NCBI GenBank assembly: GCA_046760305.1
Contig: JBHIDX010000007.1
Span: 5,185 to 69,184 of the forward strand
Direction of reading: 5' to 3'
Origin: Candidatus Aminicenantales bacterium
Lineage (GTDB): Bacteria; Acidobacteriota; Aminicenantia; Aminicenantales; Aminicenantaceae
Length of the DNA stretch: 64,000 nt
Of this stretch, positions 1,718-41,200 are shown one piece after another. The notes under the pieces were generated by a model that did not search any database, was not told the origin of the DNA, and saw nothing but the letters and a program-made list of their open reading frames with translations. Positions within the stretch are counted from its first letter, which is position 1. Each line of letters starts with the position of its first letter. The translations under genes were made by a program, and so were the position numbers.

Positions 1718-4700
1718 ATGGAGCTATCATTCATTCATCTCCACAATCATTCAGAATTCAGCATCCTGGATGGAGCTTTAAAGGTCGAAGAACTTGTTGA
1801 GGCAGCCTACAGGTATAATATGCCTGCTGTAGGGCTTTCTGACCACGGAAATATATTTGCTGCTGTTAGCTTTTTTAAAAAGGCTAGGGAGAGAGGTATA
1901 AAGCCCATTCTCGGGTGCGAAATGTATGTGGCTCCAGGTAGCCGTTTCGAAAAGAAGTCTTCTCCAAAGGATACGAATCACTTCCATCTGATTGTTTTCG
2001 TCAAGAATGAGCAGGGATACAGAAATCTCTGCCAACTCATCACCAACAGTTATCTCGAGGGCTTTTACTATAAGCCCAGGATAGACAAGGAGCTCCTTGC
2101 CCGTCACAGTGAAGGTTTAATAGGACTTTCAGCCTGCCTGAAAGGAGAAATCAATCATAATTTACTCCGGGGACGCGAGGAGGAGGCAAAACAAGTAGCT
2201 CTTGAGTACGCCGCCCTCTTCCCTGAGGGAGATTTTTATATCGAGCTTCAGGACAACGGGCTTCCTGAACAGAAGAAGATAAATCCTCTCCTCGTCGAGC
2301 TCGCTCAAGAACTTAAGCTTCCTCTAGTGGCTACGAGTGATACCCATTATCTCACCAGAGAAGACGCTAAAACCCATGACATTCTACTCTGTATCCAGAC
2401 CAATAAGAAAGTGAGTGACCAGGATAGAATTCGTTTCTCAAGCGATGAGTTTTATTTCAGATCTCCTCAAGAGATGATAGAGATTTTCAAGGATGTGCCC
2501 GAAGCTATAAAGAACACGGCTCGGATTGCTTCTCAGTGTGATTTCGAATTTCCTCAATCAGGGTATTTCCTGCCCCAGTTCAAGACTCCTGAAGGGATTT
2601 CGCTTGAGGAATATTTTTCTCAGGTGGTGAAGGAGAGATTTAAGGAGCGCCTAAAAACTCTGCGAAAAAGAGAAGAGAGAGGAGATGTGCGTCATTCCCT
2701 AGATGAATATGAAGATAGACTAGAAAAAGAGATGAAGCTCATCAAGGAAATGGGGTTTGAGGGTTATTTTCTTATTGTCTGGGATCTTATCCGTGAGGCG
2801 AAAGCGAGGAATATCCCTGTGGGTCCTGGTAGGGGTTCTGCTGCAGGCAGTCTGCTTGCTTATTGCCTGGGGATTACAGACATAGACCCTCTTGAGTATG
2901 ACCTTCTTTTTGAGAGGTTTCTAAACCCAGAGAGAATAAGCCTGCCTGATATTGATATTGATTTTTGTGGCCGACGTAGGGAAGAAGTTCTTTCCTACGT
3001 TACCCAGAAGTATGGTCAGGAGAATGTTTGCCAGATAATTACCTTTGGCACCATGGCTGCTCGGGCAGCAGTAAGAGATGTAGGCCGAGCTCTTGAGGTT
3101 CCACTTCCCGAGGTTGACAGAATAGCTAAGATGATTCCTCCACTTGGTCCTGAGGCGACGATAGAGGGAGCCCTGAAGAATATTCCACAGCTTCAGGAGT
3201 TAAGAGATAAAAATCCCAGAATTGCCCAGCTTCTCTCCATTGCCCAGAAGCTTGAGGGACAGGTGCGGCATCCCTCGATTCATGCTGCAGGAATTGTTAT
3301 TGCGCCTAAGCCGATGGTAGAGTTTATGCCTCTCTACCAATCAGCTAAGGGAGAAATCACTACCCAGTTTCCAATGCAGGATATCGAGGCTCTGGGCTTG
3401 CTCAAAATGGACCTTCTCGGGTTGCGGAATCTGACAGTTATCCATGATACAGTCGAGCTGGTTGAGAAAAACACGGGAGAGAAGATAAACATCGATGAGC
3501 TTTCCCTGGATGACGAGAAGACATTCAAACTCTTCCAGACAGGAAACACCGATGGAGTTTTCCAATTTGAAAGCCCGGGGATGAAAGACCTTCTGCGCAA
3601 TTTTAAGCCTGAAAATTTCAGGGATTTAATCGCTCTCAACGCCCTTCACCGTCCTGGGCCTCTGAAAAGCGGCATGACTGATGAGTTCATAAAACGCAAG
3701 CACCATCCTGAGATGGTGAAATTTGAGTGTCCCGAGCTGGAGCCAATCCTGAAAGAAACGCAGGGCATAATCGTCTACCAAGAACAGGTGATGAGGATTG
3801 CCACCGACCTGGCCGGCTTTTCTCTTGCTGAAGCAGATGTTCTGAGGAAGGCGATGGGTAAAAAGGTAACAAGCATGATGAGGGCTCAGAAGAAAAGGTT
3901 TATTCAGGGAGCCAAGAAAAAAGGGTTGTCTCAGGCTAAAGCCGAGAAGATATTCGAGCAGATAAAATATTTTGCAGGCTACGGGTTTAATAAATCTCAC
4001 AGCGCTGCCTATGCCTATCTTGCCTATCAGACTGCTTATCTCAAGGCCCACTACCCTTCTTATTTTCTGGCTGCGCTCCTCACTTCTGAGGCTGAGAGGG
4101 GAGCTACTTCCCAGGTAGTTAAGTATATTCATGAGTGCGGGGAGATGGGGATTAAAGTCCTTCCTCCTGATATAAATGCCAGTGATTTTAATTTCACCGT
4201 TCAGGATGGGTGTATTCGTTTCGGTCTTTCAGCCGTGAAGAATGTAGGAGAGGGAGCAGTTCGCTCCCTGATCAGGGCCAGGGAGAAAAAAGGCAAGTTC
4301 GAAACCCCTTTCGATATCTGTCAGGAAGTGGATTCCAGAGTTGTCAACAGGAAGGTGCTTGAGAGTCTGATTAAAGCGGGAGCCTTTGATTCTCTTGGAT
4401 GGAAGAGATCTCAATGCTTCCATATGATAGATAAAATGATTGATTATTCCCACCAAATTCAGAAAGTGAAGGCTTCAAAGCAAAACTTGCTCTTTGGTGA
4501 GAATCATATTGGAACACCTGAAGTGCCGGATGAAGTAAAGCAGATGCGGGAGTGGGATGAGTCGCTTCTTCTCTCCTATGAGAAAGATGCGGTAGGTTTT
4601 TTTATCACCGGGCATCCTCTTGCTCAGGTGGCCTCCAAGCTTCAGAAATTGGTTTCTCATACACTTGAAAGCCTTGATGAAGAGGAGGATTTTAACAGCG

Positions 4701-5200
4701 AGGTCAGGGTTGCTGGAATTATTGCTTCTCTTAAGCCTATTAAAACCAGGAAAGATGAGAGAATGGCGGCTTTTGTCCTTGAAGACCTAAGCGACAGGAT
4801 AGAAGTTGTTGTTTTTCCCGATAATTATAAAAAATATTTTGAATTTCTCCGAGAGGACCAGCTAGTCTGGGTAAGAGGACGTTTTATTGGCGAGGGTGAG
4901 AACAGAAAAATACACTGTATGGAAATGATGCCTCTGGCTGAAGCTTTCCAGAAGCAGGCAAAAAGGGTGATTCTGAGGATATTTCTTCCTGGGCTTGAGG
5001 AGTCAGTGTTTAAAGAGCTTAGGGTAATGCTGGAAAAATATAGTGGGGATTGTCCCCTCTTTTTTGAGCTTGAAACTCCCCCTGCCTACAAATTAGTAGC
5101 ACAATCGACAGAAATCCAGGGAGTAACTCCATCTGAAGATTTCACCAAAAATATTGAACGATTATTAGGCGAAGAATCAGTTTTCATTGAGTATAGATAG
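1718..5200 (+). CDS. dnaE: DNA polymerase III alpha subunit
   Basis: PHP domain start MELSFIHLHNHSEFS. Polymerase core motifs present and length is about 1160 aa. A GGAG SD sits at 1706-1709 upstream of ATG 1718. The ORF-track start at 1634 is an upstream extension overlapping guaA. Confidence 0.93.
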   Translation: MELSFIHLHNHSEFSILDGALKVEELVEAAYRYNMPAVGLSDHGNIFAAVSFFKKARERGIKPILGCEMYVAPGSRFEKKSSPKDTNHFHLIVFVKNEQGYRNLCQLITNSYLEGFYYKPRIDKELLARHSEGLIGLSACLKGEINHNLLRGREEEAKQVALEYAALFPEGDFYIELQDNGLPEQKKINPLLVELAQELKLPLVATSDTHYLTREDAKTHDILLCIQTNKKVSDQDRIRFSSDEFYFRSPQEMIEIFKDVPEAIKNTARIASQCDFEFPQSGYFLPQFKTPEGISLEEYFSQVVKERFKERLKTLRKREERGDVRHSLDEYEDRLEKEMKLIKEMGFEGYFLIVWDLIREAKARNIPVGPGRGSAAGSLLAYCLGITDIDPLEYDLLFERFLNPERISLPDIDIDFCGRRREEVLSYVTQKYGQENVCQIITFGTMAARAAVRDVGRALEVPLPEVDRIAKMIPPLGPEATIEGALKNIPQLQELRDKNPRIAQLLSIAQKLEGQVRHPSIHAAGIVIAPKPMVEFMPLYQSAKGEITTQFPMQDIEALGLLKMDLLGLRNLTVIHDTVELVEKNTGEKINIDELSLDDEKTFKLFQTGNTDGVFQFESPGMKDLLRNFKPENFRDLIALNALHRPGPLKSGMTDEFIKRKHHPEMVKFECPELEPILKETQGIIVYQEQVMRIATDLAGFSLAEADVLRKAMGKKVTSMMRAQKKRFIQGAKKKGLSQAKAEKIFEQIKYFAGYGFNKSHSAAYAYLAYQTAYLKAHYPSYFLAALLTSEAERGATSQVVKYIHECGEMGIKVLPPDINASDFNFTVQDGCIRFGLSAVKNVGEGAVRSLIRAREKKGKFETPFDICQEVDSRVVNRKVLESLIKAGAFDSLGWKRSQCFHMIDKMIDYSHQIQKVKASKQNLLFGENHIGTPEVPDEVKQMREWDESLLLSYEKDAVGFFITGHPLAQVASKLQKLVSHTLESLDEEEDFNSEVRVAGIIASLKPIKTRKDERMAAFVLEDLSDRIEVVVFPDNYKKYFEFLREDQLVWVRGRFIGEGENRKIHCMEMMPLAEAFQKQAKRVILRIFLPGLEESVFKELRVMLEKYSGDCPLFFELETPPAYKLVAQSTEIQGVTPSEDFTKNIERLLGEESVFIEYR

Positions 5201-5214
5201 AGGTAAAAAGGCTA

Positions 5215-5847
5215 TTGAAGTATAAACTCATCGTAGCTGATGGAAGTCCTTCGGTGCAGAAAGTGGTGGAGCTTTCTTTCCCAGCCTCGGATTTTGAAAT
5301 ATTTTCTTTTGATGATACCAACGAGGTTATTGAGAATATCTCAAGGATTGAGCCTGATGCTATCCTTCTCAGTCTTTCTCTCCCCGGTAAAGACGTTTAC
5401 GAAGTGGCTTTTTTTCTCAGAAACCACAGGGAGTTGAATAAAATTCCTATCTTTCTCCTGAGGGGGGCGTTCGAAAGCATTGATTACCAGAAGGTAGCCA
5501 GCATTGACTATGATGAGATTGTAAACAAGCCCTTTGATTCAGTGAAACTTGCGCGGAAAGTGAGAGAAGCAATTGAGAGGAAGAGAAGCCCTGTTACTTT
5601 TCCTGAAGAGCCATTTCCAGAGGAGTCAGTCTCGGCTCATGAAGAGGGAGAAGAGAAAGAAAAAAGGGTGGGAGATGTTGAAAAACTTATTGCCCAACGT
5701 ATGAGAGAAGCAGAGAGGAACCTTGAGAAAAGTCTCAAGGAAGAGCTGAGGCAAGAACTTAGAGAGGAGCTCAGGAAGGAATTGGAAGAGCTTAGAAAGA
5801 GGAAAGTCAAAATACCTTCTGGTTCAGAGGAAAAATTGTTAAAATAG
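5215..5847 (+). CDS. Receiver (REC) domain protein with acidic coiled-coil C-terminus; phospho-acceptor Asp replaced by Ser
   Basis: CheY-like fold signature (LIVADGS…ILLSLSLPGKD…IVNKPFD). The conserved K is present. S occupies the D57-equivalent position and there is a single D in the beta1 acidic pair. The C-terminal 100 aa is E/K/R-rich coiled coil. TTG start. Confidence 0.6.
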   Translation: MKYKLIVADGSPSVQKVVELSFPASDFEIFSFDDTNEVIENISRIEPDAILLSLSLPGKDVYEVAFFLRNHRELNKIPIFLLRGAFESIDYQKVASIDYDEIVNKPFDSVKLARKVREAIERKRSPVTFPEEPFPEESVSAHEEGEEKEKRVGDVEKLIAQRMREAERNLEKSLKEELRQELREELRKELEELRKRKVKIPSGSEEKLLK

Positions 5848-5935
5848 TTAATCCTGGAAATTAGAGACATGCACTGATTTTCCGAACTCAGTTACGTCTG
5901 CCTTGATTTCCAGAATTTTTAGTATAAAGGTTGCG

Positions 5936-8563
5936 ATGAGCAAAAAGCTAATAATGATTAAGGCCTATGACCCTAAACCCGTTGAGGAAAAGTGGAGTAA
6001 GTTCTGGATTGAGCAGGATTTTTTCCGGGCTGATGCCAGATCTAAGAAGAAAAGATTTTCCATGGTGCTTCCACCGCCAAATGTGACTGGCATCCTTCAT
6101 ATAGGGCATGCTCTCTGCTTTACGCTTCCAGATATAATCGCTCGCTGGAAGAGGATGCAGGGTTACAACACTCTCTGGCTACCGGGGACTGACCACGCCA
6201 GTATCGCTGTCCACAATGTAATTGAACAGGAGCTAGCAGAGAAAGGATTAACGCGGGAACAAATCGGGCGTGAAGAGTTTCTGAAGATTGCCTGGGCATG
6301 GAAGAAAAAGTACGGCGGGAGGATAGTTCATCAGCTTAAGAGGCTTGGTGCATCCCTGGACTGGTCCCGGGAGAGGTTTACCCTTGATGAAGATTATGCT
6401 CGAGTGGTGAGAAAAATATTTGTAGAGCTTTATCAGGAAGGCCTTATCTACAGAGACTATTATCTGGTAAACCACTGCCCCCATTGTGGCACAGTTCTCT
6501 CTGACATAGAGGTCGAACACCGGGAACTTAAAGCAAAGCTTTACTACATAAAATACCCCAAAGTTGACTCAGAAGGATACCTGGTTGTGGCTACAACCAG
6601 ACCAGAAACAATGCTGGGCGATACTGCTGTTGCCGTCCATCCCGAGGATAAGCGCTACAAGGAGCTTATCGGAAAAGAGGTTTATCTTCCCCTAACAGGC
6701 CGCACCATACCCGTCGTCTCAGACACCGAGGTTGACATGGATTTTGGCACCGGTGCCGTAAAAGTGACCCCTGCTCATGACCCGGTGGATTTCGAGCTGG
6801 GAAAAAGGCATAACCTCGAACAGGTTACTGTCATCGACAAATCTGGCAAGATGACCGAAGAGGCGGGAGAAGATTTTAAAGGCCTAGACAGGTATGAATG
6901 CCGGCAAAAAGTGCTCGAAAAGCTTGAAGAACAGGGTTTACTGGAGAAGGAGGAGGACTATCAGCACGCAGTAGGCCACTGTTACCGGTGTAAAACTGTT
7001 ATTGAACCCTTTCTATCCTGGCAGTGGTTTGTGAAAGTTGGTCCCCTTGCCAGAGAAGCAATCCGTGTCGTCGAGAAGCGAAGGATAAAATTTATACCTG
7101 CCAACTGGGCTAAAACCTACTTTGAGTGGATGTACAACATACATGACTGGTGTATCTCCCGCCAGCTCTGGTGGGGCCACAGAATCCCTGCCTGGTACTG
7201 TGAAGATTGCGAGGAAATTACAGTGGCTATGGATACTCCTGCTCACTGTACGAAGTGCAAAAGTACCCGCCTCAAGCAGGATGAGGATGTGCTCGATACT
7301 TGGTTCAGTTCAGCTCTCTGGCCATTTGCCACCCTGGGCTGGCCAGAAAAGACAGACGACTTCAAAACTTTCTACCCCACTGACCTGATGTCAACAGGAT
7401 TTGACATCATTTTTTTCTGGGTGGCCAGAATGATTATGATGGGTTTGAAGTTTGCCGGGGATATCCCTTTTAGACATGTCTACATCAACGGTCTGGTGAG
7501 GGATTTTAGAAGGAGGAAGATGAGTAAGTCCGAGGGTAATGTCATCGACCCGCTGGAGATGATAGAGAAATATGGAACAGATGCCTTGAGGTTCACTCTC
7601 GCTGCTCTGGCTGTCCCAGGCATGGATATAGCCCTTTCCGAGGAGAGAATGGCTGGCTACAGAGCCTTTGCTAATAAGATATGGAATGCTTCGCGCTTTG
7701 TGTTGATGAACCTCGAGGGAGAAAATTTTACCATAAGGGATGAGGAATTGACTCTGGCTGACCGCTGGATAAGAAGCAGGCTGGATAGAATAATTGAGCA
7801 CATAAACACAGCCCTGGAAGAATACAGGTTTTATGAAGCAGCCGAAAAAATTTACCACTTCATCTGGGGTGAGTTCTGTGATTGGTATATAGAACTAGCC
7901 AAGCCAAGCCTGAGGGAAAAAAATAGAACTACCCAGGCCGTTCTCGCCCAGAGTATTGACAAGATTTTGAGGTTGCTTCATCCCTTTATGCCCTTCATCA
8001 CAGAAGAAATATGGCAGCATTTGCCTTTTCCAGGGAAATCTTTGACAGTAGCTCAGTTTCCTCAATCTGATAAAGCCCTTAGAGATGAGGATGCTGAAAG
8101 AGAAATGGCTGTTCTTCAGCAGCTCGTAGTCGAAGTAAGGACAATCAGGGCAGAACACACGATTCCACCCCGAGAAAAACTTAAGTTGCTGGTGAAGTCC
8201 AGCGGAGTGGAGAAGGAAGTTATTTTGCGCAACAGGAGATCAATAGAGACCCTGGCAGGCCTAAACGAGATCCAAATGGTAGAAGAATTCCCCCGGGAAA
8301 AGTGTTTGCTCAAGGGAGTTAGTAGCAGCGGGGAGATTGCGCTCTTAGCAAAGAGTGATGTTCATCTGGAAAGGGAAAGAGAGAGACTGGAAAGGGAGAT
8401 TGTGAAGGTCAAGAGGGAGATAGGGAAAATAGAAGGGAGGCTTAAGAACACCAATTTTCTCCAGCGAGCCCCCCGGGAGGTTGTGAGCAGAACCAAGCAG
8501 AGGCTTGTAGAACTCAGAAGGCGTAAGTCAAAACTGGAATTGGGCAAGAAAAATGTTTCCTGA
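5936..8563 (+). CDS. valS: Valyl-tRNA synthetase
   Basis: HIGH motif (PNVTGILHIGHAL) and KMSKS. C-terminal coiled-coil tRNA-binding arm. ATG at 5936 gives MSKKLIMIKAYDP. Confidence 0.93.
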   Translation: MSKKLIMIKAYDPKPVEEKWSKFWIEQDFFRADARSKKKRFSMVLPPPNVTGILHIGHALCFTLPDIIARWKRMQGYNTLWLPGTDHASIAVHNVIEQELAEKGLTREQIGREEFLKIAWAWKKKYGGRIVHQLKRLGASLDWSRERFTLDEDYARVVRKIFVELYQEGLIYRDYYLVNHCPHCGTVLSDIEVEHRELKAKLYYIKYPKVDSEGYLVVATTRPETMLGDTAVAVHPEDKRYKELIGKEVYLPLTGRTIPVVSDTEVDMDFGTGAVKVTPAHDPVDFELGKRHNLEQVTVIDKSGKMTEEAGEDFKGLDRYECRQKVLEKLEEQGLLEKEEDYQHAVGHCYRCKTVIEPFLSWQWFVKVGPLAREAIRVVEKRRIKFIPANWAKTYFEWMYNIHDWCISRQLWWGHRIPAWYCEDCEEITVAMDTPAHCTKCKSTRLKQDEDVLDTWFSSALWPFATLGWPEKTDDFKTFYPTDLMSTGFDIIFFWVARMIMMGLKFAGDIPFRHVYINGLVRDFRRRKMSKSEGNVIDPLEMIEKYGTDALRFTLAALAVPGMDIALSEERMAGYRAFANKIWNASRFVLMNLEGENFTIRDEELTLADRWIRSRLDRIIEHINTALEEYRFYEAAEKIYHFIWGEFCDWYIELAKPSLREKNRTTQAVLAQSIDKILRLLHPFMPFITEEIWQHLPFPGKSLTVAQFPQSDKALRDEDAEREMAVLQQLVVEVRTIRAEHTIPPREKLKLLVKSSGVEKEVILRNRRSIETLAGLNEIQMVEEFPREKCLLKGVSSSGEIALLAKSDVHLERERERLEREIVKVKREIGKIEGRLKNTNFLQRAPREVVSRTKQRLVELRRRKSKLELGKKNVS

Positions 8564-9438: not shown

Positions 9439-10203
9439 ATGCTTTTAGCCGTTGATATAGGAAACACGAACATTGAGATAGGAGTTTTCAGGGGGGAAAA
9501 GCTCATCGAGAATTGGAAGATGAAAACAGTAAAGGATAAGACAAGAGACGAGTATGTGCTCGCCCTCATCAACCTCTTTCGATTTACATCCCTGGGTGTA
9601 GGGGATATTGATGCTGTCATCGTCTCCAGCGTGGTGCCGCCTCTTACTCCTGTTTTCCAGGATCTCAGCCTGAAACTTTTTAAACGCAAGTCCTTGGTTG
9701 TAGGTCCTGGACTAAAAACAGGAATGTCAATTCTGTATGAGAACCCCCAGGAGGTAGGAGCTGATAGAGTGGTGGCCAGCGTAGCTGCTTTTGAGAAATA
9801 CGGCGGTCCATGTATAGTGGTCGACTTTGGAACTGCTATCACCTTCGATGCCATCTCATCAAAAGGCGAGTATCTGGGAGGAGCGATTGCTCCAGGAATT
9901 CAGATTTCTGAAGAAGCCCTTTTCCGCAGAACAGCGAAGTTACCACGGGTGGAAATAAAAAAGCCAAAAAAAGCCATCGGCCGCACCACGGTTGCCAGTA
10001 TTCAATCAGGGCTTTTTTTTGGTTACATAGGCTTGATTTCGAATATCATCGCCCACATAAAAAAGGAGCTCGGGAGTGATACCAGAGTAATTTCAACCGG
10101 AGGTTTTGCCCGGCAAATCACACCCGAGATCAAGGCCATAGACCATGAAGAACCCCATCTTGTGCTTGAAGGGCTGAGGATTCTTTACCAAAAAAACAGC
10201 TGA
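9439..10203 (+). CDS. coaX: Type III pantothenate kinase
   Basis: MLLAVDIGNTNIEIGVF ASKHA fold N-terminus. 254 aa. GGAGG SD upstream. Confidence 0.9.
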   Translation: MLLAVDIGNTNIEIGVFRGEKLIENWKMKTVKDKTRDEYVLALINLFRFTSLGVGDIDAVIVSSVVPPLTPVFQDLSLKLFKRKSLVVGPGLKTGMSILYENPQEVGADRVVASVAAFEKYGGPCIVVDFGTAITFDAISSKGEYLGGAIAPGIQISEEALFRRTAKLPRVEIKKPKKAIGRTTVASIQSGLFFGYIGLISNIIAHIKKELGSDTRVISTGGFARQITPEIKAIDHEEPHLVLEGLRILYQKNS

Positions 10204-10211
10204 GAGCATTG

Positions 10212-10850
10212 ATGAAGGAAGAGCACAGCCGCTATTTTCAGGAGATTGCTAATCATTTTATTGCTGAGAGGGGGGCTCCATTTTTTCTCTCCTCCGTGGA
10301 TATTGAGCTTATTCAATCTTGGGAGAGGATGAAGATTCCCCTTGATATCGTTCTTGAAGGGATAAAGAAGGCATTCCAGGAGCGGCAGATCAAGTCCGGG
10401 AAAAGAGGCAGAGTTCGGAGTCTTGTTTCCTGTCGGTATCATGTGTTGAGAGCATTCGAGCAATACAGAGAGCGCAGAGTTGGGGTGCCCAGGAAAGAAG
10501 CAGGAGAGGCAAGGCAGGAAAAGAGGCGCAGGATAAAAAAAGAAACAGAGAATTTTATGGCCTTAATTCCTCCGGAGCTCTCTTATCTTGAAGACATATA
10601 CCAGGCAGCCAGGCATTTGCTCTCCCGAAAGGAAGTTGATGAGGCCAAACTCGAACAGCTTGATCAGAAAGTCGAAGAACTCCTCTTCAGCCGTTTTCCC
10701 CAAGAAGAAAAGGAAAAGATAAAGGAGAAAGTCTGGGGCGAATATCCATCGGCCGATGATAAGGAGCTCGATTCTCTGGTTAAGATCAAAACAGTAAAGT
10801 TCCTGAGAGATAAGTATAAAATTCCTTACCTCTCATTTTACTATTATTAA
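10212..10850 (+). CDS. Hypothetical protein, possibly with a DnaD-like helical domain
   Basis: Clean ORF with a basic, charged middle and C-terminus. No P-loop or other catalytic motif recognised. Confidence 0.45.
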   Translation: MKEEHSRYFQEIANHFIAERGAPFFLSSVDIELIQSWERMKIPLDIVLEGIKKAFQERQIKSGKRGRVRSLVSCRYHVLRAFEQYRERRVGVPRKEAGEARQEKRRRIKKETENFMALIPPELSYLEDIYQAARHLLSRKEVDEAKLEQLDQKVEELLFSRFPQEEKEKIKEKVWGEYPSADDKELDSLVKIKTVKFLRDKYKIPYLSFYYY

Positions 10851-10945
10851 TGTTTAGTTTTTTTATAGGGGGAGAGAGTTTGCTGATAGTGAGGGCAAGA
10901 AGCAGGGATTTTATCAGGAGAAAACCCAGGTCTGAATAGAGAACG

Positions 10946-12031
10946 ATGAAAACTTCTTGTTTTGAAGCGGTTATCGATTTTAATTTTCTACCGGCGAGCG
11001 AACCGTTTTCAGCTCTCATTGTCTCCAAAGCAGGCAAATCCCACGCCTCGCTAGCCATCTATAAGCTTCAGGAAGAGAGAAAAAGTAAGGCTTTCCTGGT
11101 TCAGATTCATAGCCAAAACCCTCTTTCTCTCAAGTGGGGTGATGTGTTTGAGGTTATCCAGGAGGGAGGAACACTCCTGGGCAGGGGAAGAGTGATAAAC
11201 CCCTTTTCCTCCAGAGTGAGAGGCAAAAAACTGAAGAAGAGGTTAGGCTTGCTTTTCCAGCTTGAGGGAGATGAGAAAGAAATGATTACCGCTCTAGCTC
11301 GGGAAAGAGGGATTAGAGGGTTGAGAGAAAAAGAGATTCTCGATTTTGCTCGAATATCCAGAGCCTCATTGAGAAGACTGGCAGAGGAACTTGAGGCAGA
11401 AGATAAGGTGAGGATTATCTCTTTTTCTCCTCTCTTCATTATCTGGCAGCAGAGTCTTTGTTATCTTGAGGAGAAGCTACTTGCCTATCTTGAGCAGTTT
11501 CATTCGAAACATCCCGGGGAGAGAGGTATCTCGAGGGCGAGGATAAAAAAAAGGTTTAATCTCTCTCAGAAGGTGCTCCTCTTGGTTCTTGAGCGTCTGA
11601 TCAGAGAGAAGAAGGTAGAGAAATCAGAAGAGATTATTGCCCTTGCTTCTTTTAAACTTTCCCCTACTCCTGAAGAGGAACGAGTACTTTCTAAACTCGA
11701 GGAGATGTGTTTAAGAGGAGAGTTGAGGAGTGTTTCTCAGGAAGAGCTGGCACGAACTTTTCACCTCTCACCGGAGAAGCTCAACAAGATGCTTTCTCTC
11801 CTGGTTGAGCGTAAAAAAATAGTCCAAGGAAAAGAAGGATTCTTTATCCACTCAAAATGGCTGGAGGAGACAGTTACCAAGGTGAGAAGCTTAGGGAAAA
11901 AGGAACTTACTGTCACTGATTTTAAAACGATGACAGGACTCAGCCGGAAATATGCCATTCCTCTCCTCGAACTTCTCGACCAGATGGGCGTAACTCGCAG
12001 GGTAAGCCCTTCGCGTCGGGAAATTATTTAA
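10946..12031 (+). CDS. SelB-like winged-helix protein lacking the GTPase domain
   Basis: N-terminus resembles the EF/SelB beta-barrel domain III (GDVFEVIQEGGTLLGRGRVINP). It is followed by four WH-like repeats. The C-terminal repeat carries the SelB WH4 signature (TGLSRKYAIPLLELLDQMGVTRRV). No G1-G4 GTPase motifs anywhere in the protein. Confidence 0.6.
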   Translation: MKTSCFEAVIDFNFLPASEPFSALIVSKAGKSHASLAIYKLQEERKSKAFLVQIHSQNPLSLKWGDVFEVIQEGGTLLGRGRVINPFSSRVRGKKLKKRLGLLFQLEGDEKEMITALARERGIRGLREKEILDFARISRASLRRLAEELEAEDKVRIISFSPLFIIWQQSLCYLEEKLLAYLEQFHSKHPGERGISRARIKKRFNLSQKVLLLVLERLIREKKVEKSEEIIALASFKLSPTPEEERVLSKLEEMCLRGELRSVSQEELARTFHLSPEKLNKMLSLLVERKKIVQGKEGFFIHSKWLEETVTKVRSLGKKELTVTDFKTMTGLSRKYAIPLLELLDQMGVTRRVSPSRREII

Positions 12032-12160
12032 ACCTGAACTATTAGCTTGAAAATGCATGTCATCGCGAGCGACCGAAGGGAGCGTGGCGATCTCATTTTC
12101 ATCGGTCGTGGGTGGCGTTGTCGCCATGATAAATTACCTAAAATGTGGCACAAAATCATT
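12032..12160. repeat. Intergenic nested-palindrome repeat, short copy (same family as 40867-41200)
   Basis: Shares the modules CCTGAACTATTAG.T.GAAAAT, GTCATYGCGAGCG and TCGTGGGTGGCG-(4 nt loop)-TCGCCATGATAAATTACCT with the 40.9 kb copy. Starts right after a + strand stop codon. Confidence 0.7.
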
Positions 12161-12236: not shown

Positions 12237-13064
12237 ATGAGCAACATCCAGACTTATGTTGATAAGGCTGTTGAGTTGGCTATGAGTTATGTGCCGAAAT
12301 TGCTGCTGGCAATAGTTGTCCTTGTTCTCGGTTTCTGGATTATCAAGCTTGTGGTGAAGGGATTAAATCGTTTTCTTGAGAGGAGCAAAGTTGAGATTTC
12401 TTTACAGAAATTTCTCAGCAGTCTGGTTGGTATTTTATTGAAGGTTATGTTGCTCATCAGTGTGGCTTCAATGCTGGGCATTGCCACCACTTCCTTTGTA
12501 GCCATGTTGGGTGCAGCAGGTCTTGCTGTCGGCTTGGCTCTACAGGGAAGTCTTGCCAACTTTGCCGGAGGGGTTTTGATTTTGTTCTTCAAGCCATTCA
12601 AGGTAGGAGATGTTATCGATGCCCAGGGATTTACAGGGAAAGTTCACTCTATTCAGGTCTTTCACACTGTGTTAAAGACTTATGACAACAGAACTATCAT
12701 CATTCCTAACGGCAGCCTATCAAACAACAGTATTACAAACTTTAGTACCGAACCAACGCGGCGTCTCGACATGACCTTTGGCATCAGCTACGGTGATGAT
12801 ATGGCTAAAGCGAAGAATATTCTGAAGAAACTAGTGGATGAGGATGAACGTATTCTAAAAGAACCACAACCATCAATCGTTGTATCCGAGCTTGCCGACA
12901 GCTCGGTGAACATTTCGGTTAGAATATGGTGTCCTACGGCTGACTACTGGAATGTAAATTTTGACATGCAGGAAAAGGTGAAGATGGCCTTTGACAAGGA
13001 AGGAATTTCCATTCCTTTTCCCCAGAGGGATGTACATCTTTTTCGAGAAGGAAAAAACACTTAA
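12237..13064 (+). CDS. Small-conductance mechanosensitive channel (MscS family)
   Basis: Three N-terminal TM helices, then the MscS beta-domain (…GDVIDAQGFTGKVHSIQVFHTVLKTYDNRTIIIPNG…). AAGGAGG SD precedes it. Confidence 0.85.
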   Translation: MSNIQTYVDKAVELAMSYVPKLLLAIVVLVLGFWIIKLVVKGLNRFLERSKVEISLQKFLSSLVGILLKVMLLISVASMLGIATTSFVAMLGAAGLAVGLALQGSLANFAGGVLILFFKPFKVGDVIDAQGFTGKVHSIQVFHTVLKTYDNRTIIIPNGSLSNNSITNFSTEPTRRLDMTFGISYGDDMAKAKNILKKLVDEDERILKEPQPSIVVSELADSSVNISVRIWCPTADYWNVNFDMQEKVKMAFDKEGISIPFPQRDVHLFREGKNT

Positions 13065-13070
13065 GATTTC

Positions 13071-15140
13071 TCAACTTTTCTTTTTCTTCTTGTCTTTATG
13101 CTCGAGGGCATCCTTTAGCTTTTCAGCAAAAATGCCCCTGAAAACAGACTCATCCGGAACAACAGGCTTTTTTACTTCTTCCTTTTTAGCTTCAGCGGCA
13201 ATTCTTTCCTCTTCTTGTGTCCTCTCTTCTTTTATTTTTTTAGCTGTAAGGGCTTCCATTTCGAGCTCTTCGATTTCAATTTTCTCCTCTATCACCTTCT
13301 TTTCGCCTTTTCTTGCGCGCGGGACTCTTTCCGCTTCTATTTTTGGTTTCTTTTTCTTTTTCAGCTTTTCTTTGGGAGGTAGTTTCTCACGCCGAGGTTT
13401 CTCTCCAAAGTCTTCGACTCTCTCCACTATTTCCGGTTCTCGAACATGGGGCTCGACTTCACTCGCGGGTATCTCTTCGAGGGAGATTTCGGGTCTCTCT
13501 TCTTCGGCAGAAACAGCAGGCTTAGCCACTTGAGCTGGCAGTTCTTCGGGTTTGATTTCAGGTGGTGCTTCAATTTTTTCCTCTTCTATTTCTTCTTCCT
13601 GGAAAAAGTATGTTCCTTTTTTCTTTTCTGATTTTCTGAACTCAGGAGTGTTATGGAGGGTGAGGGCCACCTCTTCCATTGAAGTGTTTTTCAGAATGTC
13701 AACCAGGTGGTATGCCCGCTGGTAGTGGAGGGCGAAGTTATCAGACTCAATGCCAAAATTCTTGAAGATGAGAACAAGCAGCTCTCCCAGGTGGAGGTCA
13801 TTTATCTGAGAGTAGAGAGAAAAGAGGCGGTCGAAAGTTTCTTTTTCCAGGTGAATGATTTTGTTGGGAACGGAATATGTAAACACTTCTTCACCACTGG
13901 CGCTGAGTTTGTCTTTCTGGGCATCATACTCAACCGTGTAGACAGAAAGCTTCTTTTTTGACTTCTTGAGCCAGAAGTTGAAACGGTTCAAACCTGTTTT
14001 TTCAAGAGTGAGGCTGGCTCCTTGAGGGACATTGTTTTCCCTGTAGAACTCCTTTAACCCAAGGAAAAAATCCCGGGCGGGATAGAAGTAGACAGTGTAT
14101 TCTTTTCTTTTTTCAGGGTCTATGAATACATATTCTCTGAATTTTGATAATTCTCGGTTAAGAGCTTTGGGGGTTTTTATCGCCCCTGAAAGAATTTCTC
14201 TCCAGGTGAGATATACTTTGAGAGAGGATAGGTCGAGTTCATCTTTTTCCGGCTCTTCCACTTCTTCAAAATGGGGAAGACTGGCTCTGGAGGCGGCCAC
14301 GGGGAGATTTTCCAAGTATGATTCGAGCGTTTTTCTTATGGCCCATTTCCCCCAGCCTTCAGGAGAAACAAAGATGAAGTTTTTCTTGTATTTTTTTTCC
14401 AGGACATAGTTCAAACTCATGGAGTGCATGTCAAAGTCTTTATGGTCGGAATTCAGGCCGAAGAATTTCTCCACAAGAGTAGCAGTTTCAGCAGATTGCT
14501 TTTTTTTGAGTAGATATTTTTCCACTTCTTTTATTTTCCCTTCGGAGATATCCACCATTTTTTCAGTGAGCTGCCAGTGTTCGTCCCAGTTGAAAAATTT
14601 GACTGACTTGGTGAGAGACTTGACTATGTTGCGTTCGAGAGTCTTCAGGTCTTTTTCGTCCATAGGGAGGGCTGAAAGCTGTGGGTTATCCTCTCTTTTG
14701 ATTATTTCTGGAGTTTGTGCTTTTCTTTCGAGGTTAGAAGGCAGGAGAACCTGAGTTTTTGATTTTTTCATGTACTCCATGTATTTTCTGAATATCCCTC
14801 CTCCCGCATAATCCACTTCAAGCATGTCACAGTTGAAGTCCTTGTACTCGATTTTATTCACCACCTTGAGCACCACGGTTCCTTTGAAATGCTGACTCAC
14901 TTTACTGCTCACATTGAGGAGTTCGTCATACTCCTTGCATATGGAGTCGCCAACTTCATAACTGCAGTAGGGATTGTATTTTTTTACTTCCTGGTCCAGC
15001 TGGTGAGCGGTTTTCATGTAGGCGAGCTTCTCTGTCAGCTCACCAAGGATCAGCGGCCTTGAAGACTTGCGCAGTTCTTCCTCGAGGAAAGAGATATCTT
15101 CCTCGTTGAGGCTCGTAAACTTTTTTCTCTCTTTATCCAT
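13071..15140 (-). CDS. Hypothetical 689-aa protein with K/E-rich low-complexity C-terminal region
   Basis: Long uninterrupted ORF, last gene of the minus-strand argF-arcC operon. Globular N-terminal roughly 480 aa with no recognised domain. C-terminal roughly 200 aa is highly charged (EEEKIE…KKKKKPK…KDKKKKKS). Confidence 0.55.
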   Translation of the reverse strand: MDKERKKFTSLNEEDISFLEEELRKSSRPLILGELTEKLAYMKTAHQLDQEVKKYNPYCSYEVGDSICKEYDELLNVSSKVSQHFKGTVVLKVVNKIEYKDFNCDMLEVDYAGGGIFRKYMEYMKKSKTQVLLPSNLERKAQTPEIIKREDNPQLSALPMDEKDLKTLERNIVKSLTKSVKFFNWDEHWQLTEKMVDISEGKIKEVEKYLLKKKQSAETATLVEKFFGLNSDHKDFDMHSMSLNYVLEKKYKKNFIFVSPEGWGKWAIRKTLESYLENLPVAASRASLPHFEEVEEPEKDELDLSSLKVYLTWREILSGAIKTPKALNRELSKFREYVFIDPEKRKEYTVYFYPARDFFLGLKEFYRENNVPQGASLTLEKTGLNRFNFWLKKSKKKLSVYTVEYDAQKDKLSASGEEVFTYSVPNKIIHLEKETFDRLFSLYSQINDLHLGELLVLIFKNFGIESDNFALHYQRAYHLVDILKNTSMEEVALTLHNTPEFRKSEKKKGTYFFQEEEIEEEKIEAPPEIKPEELPAQVAKPAVSAEEERPEISLEEIPASEVEPHVREPEIVERVEDFGEKPRREKLPPKEKLKKKKKPKIEAERVPRARKGEKKVIEEKIEIEELEMEALTAKKIKEERTQEEERIAAEAKKEEVKKPVVPDESVFRGIFAEKLKDALEHKDKKKKKS

Positions 15141-16115: not shown

Positions 16116-17034
16116 GGTTTATGAGAGCGGATTTCAGGTGGCTGGCAGAGGTAATAAGGACTTCCTTCCCTCCTCCTTTGATGTATTCAATCGCGGCTTC
16201 TATTTTAGGCCCCATCGACCCTGAGGGGAAATGTCCCTGGTCGAGGTATTCCTGAGCCTGGTCAACGGTCATTTTATGTATGCCCTTTTGTTCGGGTTTT
16301 CCCCAATTGAGATAAACTTGGTTGACATTGGTAAGGATGATAAAGAGGTCAACCTTTACTTCTTTGGCAATCATGCTCGCTGTGTAGTCCTTGTCGATGA
16401 CAGCCTCCACTCCCTGAAAGAGGCCATGGGAATTGATGATGACAGGGATTCCTCCGCCACCTCCAGCGATGACAATTTTGCCTGCTCTGACCAGGTCTCT
16501 TATGACAAATTTTGAGACCACATCTATCGGCCGGGGAGAAGGAACGACGATACGGTATCCTCGACCCGCATCCTCGATGAGCTTGACCTTTTTCTCTCGC
16601 ATAATCATTTGCGCCCTGTATTTTGAATAGAAGGGACCCACAGGTTTTGTCGGCTTCTCAAAGGCCGGATCCTCTCTGTCAACCACTACCTGTGTAATCA
16701 AGGTAGCCACGTCTTTATCTACTGAATTTCTGCGCAGCTCGTTGATTACTGACTCCTCCAGCATGTAACCCATGCTCCCCTCGGTCATGGCGTCACAGAC
16801 CTCTAGAGAGAAGGGAGGCACTTTTGTTACGGATTCTTCCATCTGGATGAGGAGGTTTCCTACCTGAGGGCCGTTTCCGTGAACGATGATAAGCTCGTAG
16901 CCCTTTTTCACCACATGGACCATGAGTCTGGCCGCACGCTGAGCATTTTTTATCTGTTCTTGCTGGAGTCCCCTCTGGTGTTCAGGAAGAAGGGCGTTGC
17001 CCCCGAAAGCGATGAGTGCAATTTTCCTTCTCAT
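16084..17034 (-). CDS. arcC: Carbamate kinase
   Basis: MRRKIALIAFGGNALL amino-acid-kinase N-terminus. 316 aa. Overlaps argF by 32 nt and the upstream gene by 1 nt, indicating an operon. Confidence 0.88.
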   Translation of the reverse strand: MRRKIALIAFGGNALLPEHQRGLQQEQIKNAQRAARLMVHVVKKGYELIIVHGNGPQVGNLLIQMEESVTKVPPFSLEVCDAMTEGSMGYMLEESVINELRRNSVDKDVATLITQVVVDREDPAFEKPTKPVGPFYSKYRAQMIMREKKVKLIEDAGRGYRIVVPSPRPIDVVSKFVIRDLVRAGKIVIAGGGGGIPVIINSHGLFQGVEAVIDKDYTASMIAKEVKVDLFIILTNVNQVYLNWGKPEQKGIHKMTVDQAQEYLDQGHFPSGSMGPKIEAAIEYIKGGGKEVLITSASHLKSALINRGGTKIIPAN

Positions 17035-18344
17035 CAGAATTCCTTAAGCACATCTTCGAGTGTGGGTGAGCCAATTTCTTCAAGACGATAGCTTACATGG
17101 AGGATTTTCTTTTCGGTGTGTATCAGACGATTGAGGTCAATCGGCGTCCCGCTGAGGATAAGATCGCAGTCTGCTCTGTTGATGGTCTCAGTCAGCTCGG
17201 CGACCTGTTCGCTTCCGTAGCCCATAGCAGGAAGAACACGGTCGAGATGAGAGTACTTCTGGAAAGTATCCCTGATACTCCCCACAGCGAAAGGCCGCGG
17301 ATCGATGATTTCAGAGGCATGGTGTTTGGTGGCAGCAATGGTTGCTGCCCCATAAGGCATGCCACCGTGGGTAAGAGTGGGACCATCTTCTATGACCAAC
17401 ACTCTTTTTCCCTCTATCTCCTTTCCATCGGCAACAGTGAAAGGAGAGCTGGCCCTGATTATTGTTGCTTGGGGATTTATTTCTCTGATGTTTTTAAGCA
17501 CTTCCTCGATTTTTTCCTTCCGAGCGGTGTCCATTTTGTTGATGACATAGACATCAGCTCTCCGGAAATTGGTTTCTCCAGGGTAGTAAAGGAGCTCATG
17601 ACCTGCCCTGTGCGGGTCTACAACCACGATTTCAAGGCTTGCATTGAAGAAAGAGAAGTCATTATTTCCTCCGTCCCAGAGAATAATGTCTGCTTCTTTT
17701 TCTGCCTCCTTGAGGATAGCCTCATAATCCACCCCGGCATAAACGACAATTCCCCGCTCGATGTGTGGTTCGTACTCCTCTCTTTCCTCAATGGTACATT
17801 CATGTTTGTCCAAGTCCTCGTAGCTCGCAAAGCGCTGAACCTTCTGCTTAACCAGGTTTCCGTATGGCATTGGGTGGCGGATAACTACCACCCGCCTCCC
17901 CTTATTTTTGAGCAGGAGTGCAGTTTTACGACTCGTCTGGCTCTTTCCACTTCCGGTTCTTACAGCGCAGACAGAGATGAGTGGTAGCTTTGAGGAAAGC
18001 ATTGTCTGCTTTGGCCCGAGAAGAATAAAGCTTGCCCCTGCAGCCTGAACAATCGAGCAACGGTGCATTACGTAATCATGAGAGATATCGCTGTAGGCAA
18101 AATAAACTTCATCCACACCATGTTCCTTGATGAGGGGAACGAGGTCTTCTTCAGGGTAAATCGTAATTCCCTCCGGGTAAAGTCTCCCTGCCAGCTCTGC
18201 CGGGTATTTCCTGTCCTCGATATCCGGAATCTGAGTGGCAGTGAAGGCCACTACTCGGTATTCGCTGTTGTTCCTGAAATAGACGTTGAAGTTGTGGAAA
18301 TCTCTTCCAGCTGCTCCCATGATTATCACTTTTTTCATACTCAA
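17034..18344 (-). CDS. P-loop NTPase with N-terminal Rossmann/CoA-binding-like domain (cyclic 2,3-diphosphoglycerate synthetase-like or DUF1611-like; function unknown)
   Basis: VIIMGAAGRDFHNF Rossmann-like start. Walker A CAVRTGSGKSQTS. NKMD G4-like motif. 436 aa. First gene of the operon with arcC and argF. Confidence 0.4.
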   Translation of the reverse strand: MSMKKVIIMGAAGRDFHNFNVYFRNNSEYRVVAFTATQIPDIEDRKYPAELAGRLYPEGITIYPEEDLVPLIKEHGVDEVYFAYSDISHDYVMHRCSIVQAAGASFILLGPKQTMLSSKLPLISVCAVRTGSGKSQTSRKTALLLKNKGRRVVVIRHPMPYGNLVKQKVQRFASYEDLDKHECTIEEREEYEPHIERGIVVYAGVDYEAILKEAEKEADIILWDGGNNDFSFFNASLEIVVVDPHRAGHELLYYPGETNFRRADVYVINKMDTARKEKIEEVLKNIREINPQATIIRASSPFTVADGKEIEGKRVLVIEDGPTLTHGGMPYGAATIAATKHHASEIIDPRPFAVGSIRDTFQKYSHLDRVLPAMGYGSEQVAELTETINRADCDLILSGTPIDLNRLIHTEKKILHVSYRLEEIGSPTLEDVLKEF

Positions 18345-40866: not shown

Positions 40867-41200
40867 AAACAATGCCCTGACCTTAACCGGCCTGAACTAT
40901 TAGTTCGAAAATAGCATTTTCATTTGTCGTGGGTGGCGCACTCGCCATGATAAATTACCTAGAAAATGCGCCATGTCATTGCGAGCGGAGCGAATCAATC
41001 TGTCGTTGCGAGCCCTGAAAGGGCGTGGCAATCCCATCATCTCCGGGAGTGAATGAGGTTGCCACGCTTCGCTCGCAACGGAGGATTGCCACGGCACTTC
41101 GTGCCTCGCAGAGACGAGAGGCCGCCAATGCATGGGACTGCTTCGTCGCTCCGCTTCTCGCAATGACAAGGCCAACATCATTTTCATACCACTATTATCA
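40867..41200. repeat. Intergenic nested-palindrome repeat, long copy (same family as 12032-12160)
   Basis: Outer inverted repeat CATGTCATTGCGAGCGGAGCGAA (40972-) pairs with TTCGTCGCTCCGCTTCTCGCAATGACAAG (41141-). Inner hairpin CGTTGCGAGC…GGCGTGGCAA pairs with TTGCCACGCTTCGCTCGCAACG. Shares the 5' module and the TGGCG-loop-CGCCA hairpin with the 12 kb copy. The frame-shadow ORFs translate to an ARND-containing peptide. Confidence 0.75.

Follow-up and report, generated by a model that had tools for sequence, protein, structure and literature searches.

SelBC, a GTPase-less C-terminal half of SelB conserved in Candidatus Aminicenantes

The C-terminal half of SelB, the selenocysteine (Sec)-specific elongation factor, is the textbook example, in bacteria, of a protein that reprograms decoding by reading a hairpin in the mRNA. 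In a 64,000-nt stretch of Candidatus Aminicenantales DNA (assembly GCA_046760305.1, contig JBHIDX010000007.1, positions 5,185 to 69,184; hereafter, the window), this half is encoded by a gene of its own, which we call selBC. The locus raises the question of whether such a gene is the remnant of a broken selB or an intact gene and, if intact, what a hairpin reader does when it is made without its GTPase. The analysis described here indicates that selBC is intact and under selection and encodes a SelB paralogue without a GTPase, and that its product is a core protein of Candidatus Aminicenantes, a class-level group of Acidobacteriota.

Domain architecture of the SelBC protein

The selBC open reading frame (ORF) starts with ATG and encodes a protein of 361 amino acids (aa). 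Two SelB winged-helix (WH) families of Pfam matched it above their gathering thresholds, namely SelB-wing_3 (PF09107) at aa 318-354 (E 5e-17, 61.6 bits against 23.2) and SelB-wing_2 (PF09106) at aa 179-233 (E 4.7e-10, 39.8 bits against 22.3). In a phmmer search of the PDB, SelB was the sole protein of solved structure matched by sequence. The C-terminal fragment of Moorella SelB (1LVA) was aligned with aa 120-357 (E 8.7e-22, or 1.7e-31 when the profile of the selBC family was used as the query), 1WSU with aa 244-357 (E 1.2e-10), and residues 314-579 of Aquifex SelB (4ZU9) with aa 58-358.

The structure was modeled with AlphaFold2 (AF2) from an alignment of 31 homologues. The model, with a predicted local distance difference test score (pLDDT) of 88.6, consists of a beta-barrel (aa 1-85), a helix (94-106), and four winged helices (110-167, 168-233, 242-302, and 303-360). 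Its best Foldseek matches were 1LVA, with a target-normalised template modeling (TM) score of 0.77, 4ZU9, and 5LZB, the ribosome-bound SelB of E. coli. The alignments with the latter two extend over 367-373 columns, and the barrel alone gave matches of about 90 residues to many structures of the elongation factor (EF) EF-Tu. The initial annotation of this DNA, made from its letters only, had described a 361-aa SelB half with an EF-type barrel and four winged helices, the last of them of the SelB type. Pfam, phmmer, AF2, and Foldseek agree with this description: the similarity to SelB structures reaches beyond the last winged helix, and WH4 is supported by both the PF09107 match and the signature that it shares with SelB.

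The point at which the protein begins could also be defined. In the profile search and in tblastn, residues ~267-270 of full-length SelBs were paired with residues 1-3 of SelBC. The published limits of A. aeolicus SelB are 266-342 for domain III (D3), 343-361 for the spacer, and 362-582 for the winged-helix domains WHD1-4 (PMC4605307). Therefore, SelBC starts at the boundary between domains II and III (D2/D3). The protein is basic, with an isoelectric point (pI) of 9.8.

Compared with canonical SelB, SelBC has the EF-type domain III and the four winged helices, including a WH4 of the type that binds the Sec insertion sequence (SECIS) hairpin, and lacks the N-terminal GTPase domain with its G1-G4 motifs. 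Against the NCBIfam selB equivalog TIGR00475, it scored 48.7 bits at a cut-off of 242.25, and only model positions 303-573 of 581 were covered. The combination of SelB winged-helix Pfam matches above gathering with the absence of PF00009 is that of a "SelB C-terminal domain-containing protein". No G1, G3, or G4 motif was found in the selBC ORF or in the ORF upstream of it. When seven full-length SelBs were compared with the 64-kb window by tblastn, the N-terminal half of SelB was not detected and only positions 10946-12019 were matched. The absence of a SelB G-domain, noted in the initial annotation for this ORF and the space upstream, thus extends to the whole window. In the region 10200-10945, where a frameshifted G-domain would have pointed to a broken selB, no remnant was found, the best tblastn E value being 1.5, which is at chance level.

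A conserved family in Candidatus Aminicenantes

A homologue search of 5.8 billion proteins yielded more than 120 selBC clusters with 47-60% identity. Nearly all members are 359-368 aa long, with a few fragments or proteins of up to 391 aa. In the family alignment, 35 columns are invariant and the N-terminus, MKTxCFDA, is conserved; the protein of the window, which forms its first row, possesses all 35 invariant residues. In a filter-free profile search, about 45 representatives (50% identity, ~360 aa) mostly scored above 300 bits, with 227 bits for the weakest full-length member, whereas full-length SelBs (620-655 aa) scored 161 bits at most, leaving a score gap below the family. In a rough neighbour-joining tree, the family formed one clade apart from the C-terminal halves of 44 SelBs.

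For the distribution of the gene, one genome per species was scanned, and 479 stretches were confirmed by tblastn. One of the two search patterns can also be matched by canonical SelB, which makes this number an upper bound. Nearly all of the best 80 of the 479 stretches carried the Aminicenantes label, and they included four complete chromosomes (CP070825.1, CP070750.1, OY969586.1, and OY969696.1). At least 80 species-level Candidatus Aminicenantes genomes carry selBC in one syntenic block. The family can be defined by a length of ~360 aa, the MKTxCFDA start, the WH4 motif TGLSRKYAIPLLELLDQMGVTRR, and a position downstream of unk213 and rnr, where unk213 encodes a 213-aa protein and rnr encodes RNase R; the protein of the window fits this definition except that rnr is missing.

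These results bear directly on the reading of selBC as a decayed selB pseudogene, which the initial annotation had offered as an alternative. It is true that two-fifths of SelB are missing from the protein and that "short SelB" entries of the databases are often fragments of broken genes. However, the length, the start, and the 35 invariant residues are kept over more than 120 clusters, down to ~40% identity, the position is fixed in at least 80 species, and no remnant of the G-domain lies upstream. The pseudogene reading is therefore ruled out, its residual probability being practically negligible, and selBC almost certainly represents a functional conserved family. The other alternative of the initial annotation, a distinct GTPase-less family, is borne out as far as the status of the family is concerned, by the single clade and the separation of the bit scores; its further proposal of an RNA-binding protein with a SECIS-like target draws on the retained WH4 signature.

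The family had also been thought uncharacterised. No paper on a stand-alone SelB C-terminal protein was found in the literature, but a domain-level name already exists at NCBI, where the identical protein and labelled relatives are called "SelB C-terminal domain-containing protein" of Candidatus Aminicenantes. Many family members are called "selenocysteine-specific elongation factor" by JGI/IMG.

A wider, multi-phylum family of stand-alone SelB halves was considered and rejected, since the other matches of ~370 aa proved to be fragments of broken canonical selB genes or a single recent truncation (in what follows, P numbers denote proteins and L numbers denote loci). P0242 is a fragment of a frameshifted selB within a sel operon, and P0209 lies alone on a 1.1-kb contig. 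In another organism, locus L092 (GCA_012975005.1, JABAOC010015720.1) contains a sel operon at 1838-7116 in which an in-frame TGA (Sec) divides selD, and a TusA/YedF-like gene and selA come next; its selB was called as two overlapping ORFs of 260 and 371 aa. Such a split shows how many "short SelB" entries come to be fragments of canonical genes.

The truncation is P0298 (376 aa; L009, 10001-11131, and L010), a stand-alone D3 with WH1-4 encoded 20 nt downstream of glyQ-glyS in a Thermodesulfobacterium-like genome. Its identity is 53% with full-length Thermodesulfobacterium SelB and only 32% with SelBC of the window. P0298 is an event independent of the selBC family, a single cluster with no wider family around it; as a recent truncation or duplicate, it may be non-functional. 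A 213-aa protein encoded near P0298 in L009 showed no relation to unk213 and is not a common partner, and a neighboring AIRS gene, considered as selD, turned out to be purM.

The selBC locus and its coupling to rnr

The mapping of related loci by tblastn revealed a conserved block, valS-birA-coaX-unk213-rnr-selBC, with genes for a 689-aa unknown protein and an ornithine/aspartate carbamoyltransferase on the opposite strand downstream. The initial annotation had counted selBC among the least housekeeping-like parts of the window, a view that does not agree with its place in this block.

The gene directly upstream of selBC is rnr in 77 of the 85 distinct loci. The stop codon of rnr overlaps the start of selBC in 49 of these 77 loci (by 4 nt in 38 and by 1 nt in 10), and the gap is at most 30 nt in 18 further loci. 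The upstream gene of locus L005 encodes a bona fide RNase R, scoring 677 bits against the equivalog cut-off of 598. The RNase R of Aminicenantes (~684 aa; L005, 7932-9986, and equivalents) keeps the N-terminal winged-helix region; its S1 domain is directly followed by the C-terminus, and a basic extension is lacking. In E. coli RNase R, a lysine-rich C-terminal tail is implicated in recruitment to stalled ribosomes. The missing extension is compatible with an accessory RNA- or ribosome-binding subunit, without being evidence for one.

The nearest relatives of the window (59% and 58% identity) do carry rnr, and no rnr remnant was found in the 95-nt spacer upstream of selBC. Therefore, the absence of rnr here reflects a lineage-specific loss or relocation. 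It is for this reason that the initial annotation missed the near-universal coupling to RNase R, which is the strongest functional clue. The spacer displayed no significant RNA structure (fold z-score +1.08) and no promoter or terminator match on the + strand.

The gene unk213 lies upstream in the selBC cluster wherever the upstream sequence is readable. The AF2 model of its product (pLDDT 84) contains nine helices. No Pfam match and no significant fold match were obtained for it, and its homologues come only from Aminicenantes. The initial annotation had taken this gene for one unrelated to SelB, and rightly so, as an all-alpha protein restricted to Aminicenantes is not a GTPase remnant. The coordinates of the features are collected in Table 1.

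Table 1. Features of the selBC locus, with positions in the window
Feature	Position	Strand	Basis
selBC, 361-aa stand-alone SelB domain III + WH1-4 protein	10946..12031 (stop codon 12029-12031)	+	ORF, Pfam, PDB SelB matches, AF2, Foldseek, family
aa 1-85, diverged EF-Tu/SelB domain-III-like beta-barrel	10946..11200	+	AF2 strands 2-85; Foldseek; SelB ~267-350 aligned
aa 86-109, basic spacer with helix 94-106, counterpart of the SelB N-C spacer fixing WH1 to D3	11201..11272	+	AF2; domain map of PMC4605307; phmmer against 4ZU9; pI 11.1
aa 110-233, WH1 (110-167) + WH2 (168-233)	11273..11644	+	AF2; 1LVA and 2V9V alignments; PF09106 at 179-233
aa 242-361, WH3 (242-302) + WH4 (303-361), counterpart of the SelB SECIS-binding pair	11669..12028	+	1WSU alignment; PF09107; shared consensus; conservation
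95-nt spacer, site of rnr in 77/85 related loci	10851..10945	+	Synteny, junctions, remnant search, folding
unk213, conserved Aminicenantes-only all-alpha protein	10209..10850	+	Synteny, homologues, AF2

Several further observations concern the region downstream. Directly after the selBC stop, short intergenic repeats occupy positions 12059-12143. One of their units is "GTCATCGCGAGCG...GCGATCTC"; another, of 50 nt (12094-12143), recurs with 88% identity at 40915-40964 and is followed there by more units of the "GTCATTGCGAGCG" type (region 40915-41200). Four independent Logan contigs from this genome all terminate 31 bp past the selBC stop, indicating that assemblies break at this repeat. A gene for an MscS-type mechanosensitive channel (12237-13064, + strand) is inserted between selBC and the convergent gene for the 689-aa protein; no MscS match was found in 80-plus related loci. 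The 689-aa protein (13071-15140, - strand) has a K/E-rich C-terminal third and no Pfam match. Its gene is convergent with selBC in almost all relatives and follows within a few bases of selBC in several of them. Farther on, a conserved 436-aa protein with no Pfam match (17034-18344, - strand) is encoded next to carbamate/amino-acid kinase and carbamoyltransferase genes.

RNA-binding signature and possible functions

For the comparison of RNA-binding signatures, the selBC family and 44 canonical SelBs were placed in one alignment. Within the family, column conservation was highest in WH4 (0.81, with 15 invariant positions), followed by WH3 (0.72), and lowest in the barrel (0.55). The WH4 consensus of the family, FK..TGLSRKYAIPLLELLDQMGVTRR.G..REIL, coincides with fK...g.sRKyaiPlLEylD....T.R.Gd.R of SelB, and the pattern common to both is FK..G.SRKYAIPLLE.LD....T.R.G..R. 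Meanwhile, the domain-III motifs of SelB (H.gT.E..arv and gDrFiiR.ySp.TiGGG) are not kept in the family. In SelB, WHD3-4 bind the SECIS hairpin, and D3 contacts the T and extra arms of tRNA-Sec in the SelB model (PMC4605307). As WH4 is the most conserved part and retains the SelB signature while the D3 motifs are lost, we infer that hairpin-type RNA binding by WH3 and WH4 is the selected activity. The recognition of tRNA-Sec has probably not been retained. That SelBC binds RNA appears fairly probable to us, both the binding and the nature of the RNA being deduced from these comparisons.

The working model is as follows. WH3 and WH4 of SelBC would grip a structured RNA, most simply a hairpin, in the manner of SelB on SECIS. 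Lacking domains I and II, the protein would be unable to bind GTP or an aminoacyl end, and we therefore propose that it is an RNA-recognition or adaptor module and not a translation factor. In most of the class, it would be co-translated with RNase R. Because of the overlap between the rnr stop and the selBC start, the protein would most likely act with RNase R in the turnover of RNA or in its ribosome-linked quality control, and not in Sec insertion; unk213 may take part alongside the two. This overall reading, in which a SelB paralogue without a GTPase binds structured RNA and has RNase R as its probable partner, is tentative, and we rate its chances at a little below even. A real partnership with RNase R, as suggested by the gene order and the stop/start overlap, is possible but doubtful when judged by itself. 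It is rather unlikely that, throughout the class, the SECIS-reading half has become a free hairpin reader whose production keeps pace with that of RNase R and which serves this enzyme as a subunit for specificity or docking. Such a subunit would direct RNase R to certain structured RNAs or to the side of the 30S subunit where mRNA enters, or it would shield these from RNase R.

Several points weigh against the overall reading. The rnr gene is missing at this position in four loci (the window, L044, L059 of Ca. Aminicenans sakinawicola, and L062) with selBC intact, so the dependence of selBC on an adjacent rnr is not obligatory. The block also includes the unrelated birA, coaX, and valS, and the region is syntenic class-wide; the overlap with rnr may thus reflect a compact operon structure and not a partnership. 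No conserved candidate target RNA was detected near selBC by Rfam or by the signal and folding checks of the spacer. The RNA binding of SelBC is itself an extrapolation from homology and conservation, and there is a small chance that the role of the protein is related to Sec after all.

Such a Sec-related factor could be the SECIS-binding subunit, acting in trans, of a split SelB whose D1-D2 GTPase is encoded elsewhere (compare SBP2), or it could bind SECIS as a competitor or regulator of Sec insertion. The retention of the WH4 signature in the most conserved part of the protein, its beginning exactly at the D2/D3 boundary, and the presence of canonical SelB in other Acidobacteriota, whose common ancestor with this group plausibly used Sec, would all suit this idea. 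However, selBC was found in a fixed housekeeping block at every locus examined, and the Sec trait is usually patchy. The surroundings also speak against it: no selA, selD, or EF-like gene occurs within 10 kb on either side in about 85 loci (1.54 Mb), no N-terminal half of SelB was found in the same 1.54 Mb, and the window contains no tRNA-Sec, its only Rfam match being a tRNA-Val. No paper on Sec use in Aminicenantes was found, and no Aminicenantes-labelled canonical SelB turned up, though no search was aimed at one. The lost D3 motifs belong to the domain that contacts the arms of tRNA-Sec in the SelB model (PMC4605307). A Sec-related role thus seems improbable to us, although the locus may, on a bolder reading, point to a split bacterial Sec system with SECIS recognition in trans.

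Two other explanations dispense with both Sec and RNase R. SelBC might be a ribosome- or RNA-associated factor acting at the mRNA entry site of the 30S subunit (h16/S4) or on tRNA- or transfer-messenger RNA (tmRNA)-like structures, perhaps with unk213, in which case its adjacency to rnr would be synteny. SelB's C-terminal domain contacts h16 and S4 of the 30S subunit (bioRxiv 10.1101/2025.02.04.636165), unk213 accompanies selBC more constantly than does rnr, which is missing in the four lineages named above, and a second, independent truncated SelB (P0298) lies behind glyQS in a translation-related neighborhood. Against this, the stop/start overlap is with rnr and not with unk213, and P0298 forms a single recent cluster that is maybe non-functional. 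We consider such a factor unlikely. The reuse of the SelB scaffold in a winged-helix DNA-binding protein, a transcription regulator or a nucleoid protein, is suggested by the basic character of SelBC, by WH3, which weakly matches FeoC, Crp, MarR, and GntR-type helix-turn-helix (HTH) domains of Pfam, and by the tandem winged-helix proteins Rpc34 and TFIIIC among the Foldseek matches. In spite of these similarities, the HTH matches are below threshold except for a marginal one to FeoC (24.2, with the cut-off at 21), conservation peaks in the very WH4 motif that canonical SelBs use for RNA binding, and no conserved intergenic operator region lies beside selBC, its junctions being overlapping or very short. 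DNA binding is accordingly held to be quite improbable.

The GTPase-less paralogue preferred here can be set beside several known systems. Bacterial SelB (TIGR00475; 4ZU9, 5LZB-D) has homologous domain III, N-C spacer, and WH1-4 in the same order and the common WH4 signature SRKYAIPLLE.LD...T.R, but SelBC lacks domain I (the GTPase) and domain II, has lost the D3 motifs, and is encoded in an rnr operon and not in a sel operon. The best match in both sequence and fold is the C-terminal fragment of Moorella thermoacetica SelB with its four winged helices (1LVA, 2UWM, 2PLY, 1WSU). This experimental truncation binds SECIS alone, which shows that the GTPase is not required for such a SelB half to fold and to bind RNA. 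It is, however, a laboratory construct of a full-length factor, whereas selBC is a natural stand-alone gene whose product includes the domain-III barrel. Eukaryotic SBP2 is alike in concept only, in that the hairpin is recognized apart from the elongation-factor GTPase; it uses an L7Ae-type domain, of which SelBC showed no Pfam match (L7Ae/L30e) at E values up to 1, and no evidence links SelBC to Sec decoding. The archaeal aSelBL proteins (PMC3037878, PMC4329189) are likewise SelB-derived paralogues without a demonstrated Sec role, but they keep the GTPase and EF domains and have no bacterial winged helices, and thus represent the opposite half. P0298 shares the stand-alone D3 with WH1-4 and the missing GTPase, and it falls outside the selBC family as a single recent cluster.

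Metagenome surveys that score the Sec trait would record false positives through the elongation-factor label that JGI attaches to selBC. SelBC is also a candidate partner of RNase R, whose choice of substrates is poorly understood. If our reading is true, a natural, class-wide, GTPase-less version of SelB would give the hairpin reader a second life outside Sec insertion. The domains of the protein are known and its function is deduced from them and from the locus; selBC is a clean and testable example of a module taken from a decoding factor and put to use again in the absence of its GTPase.
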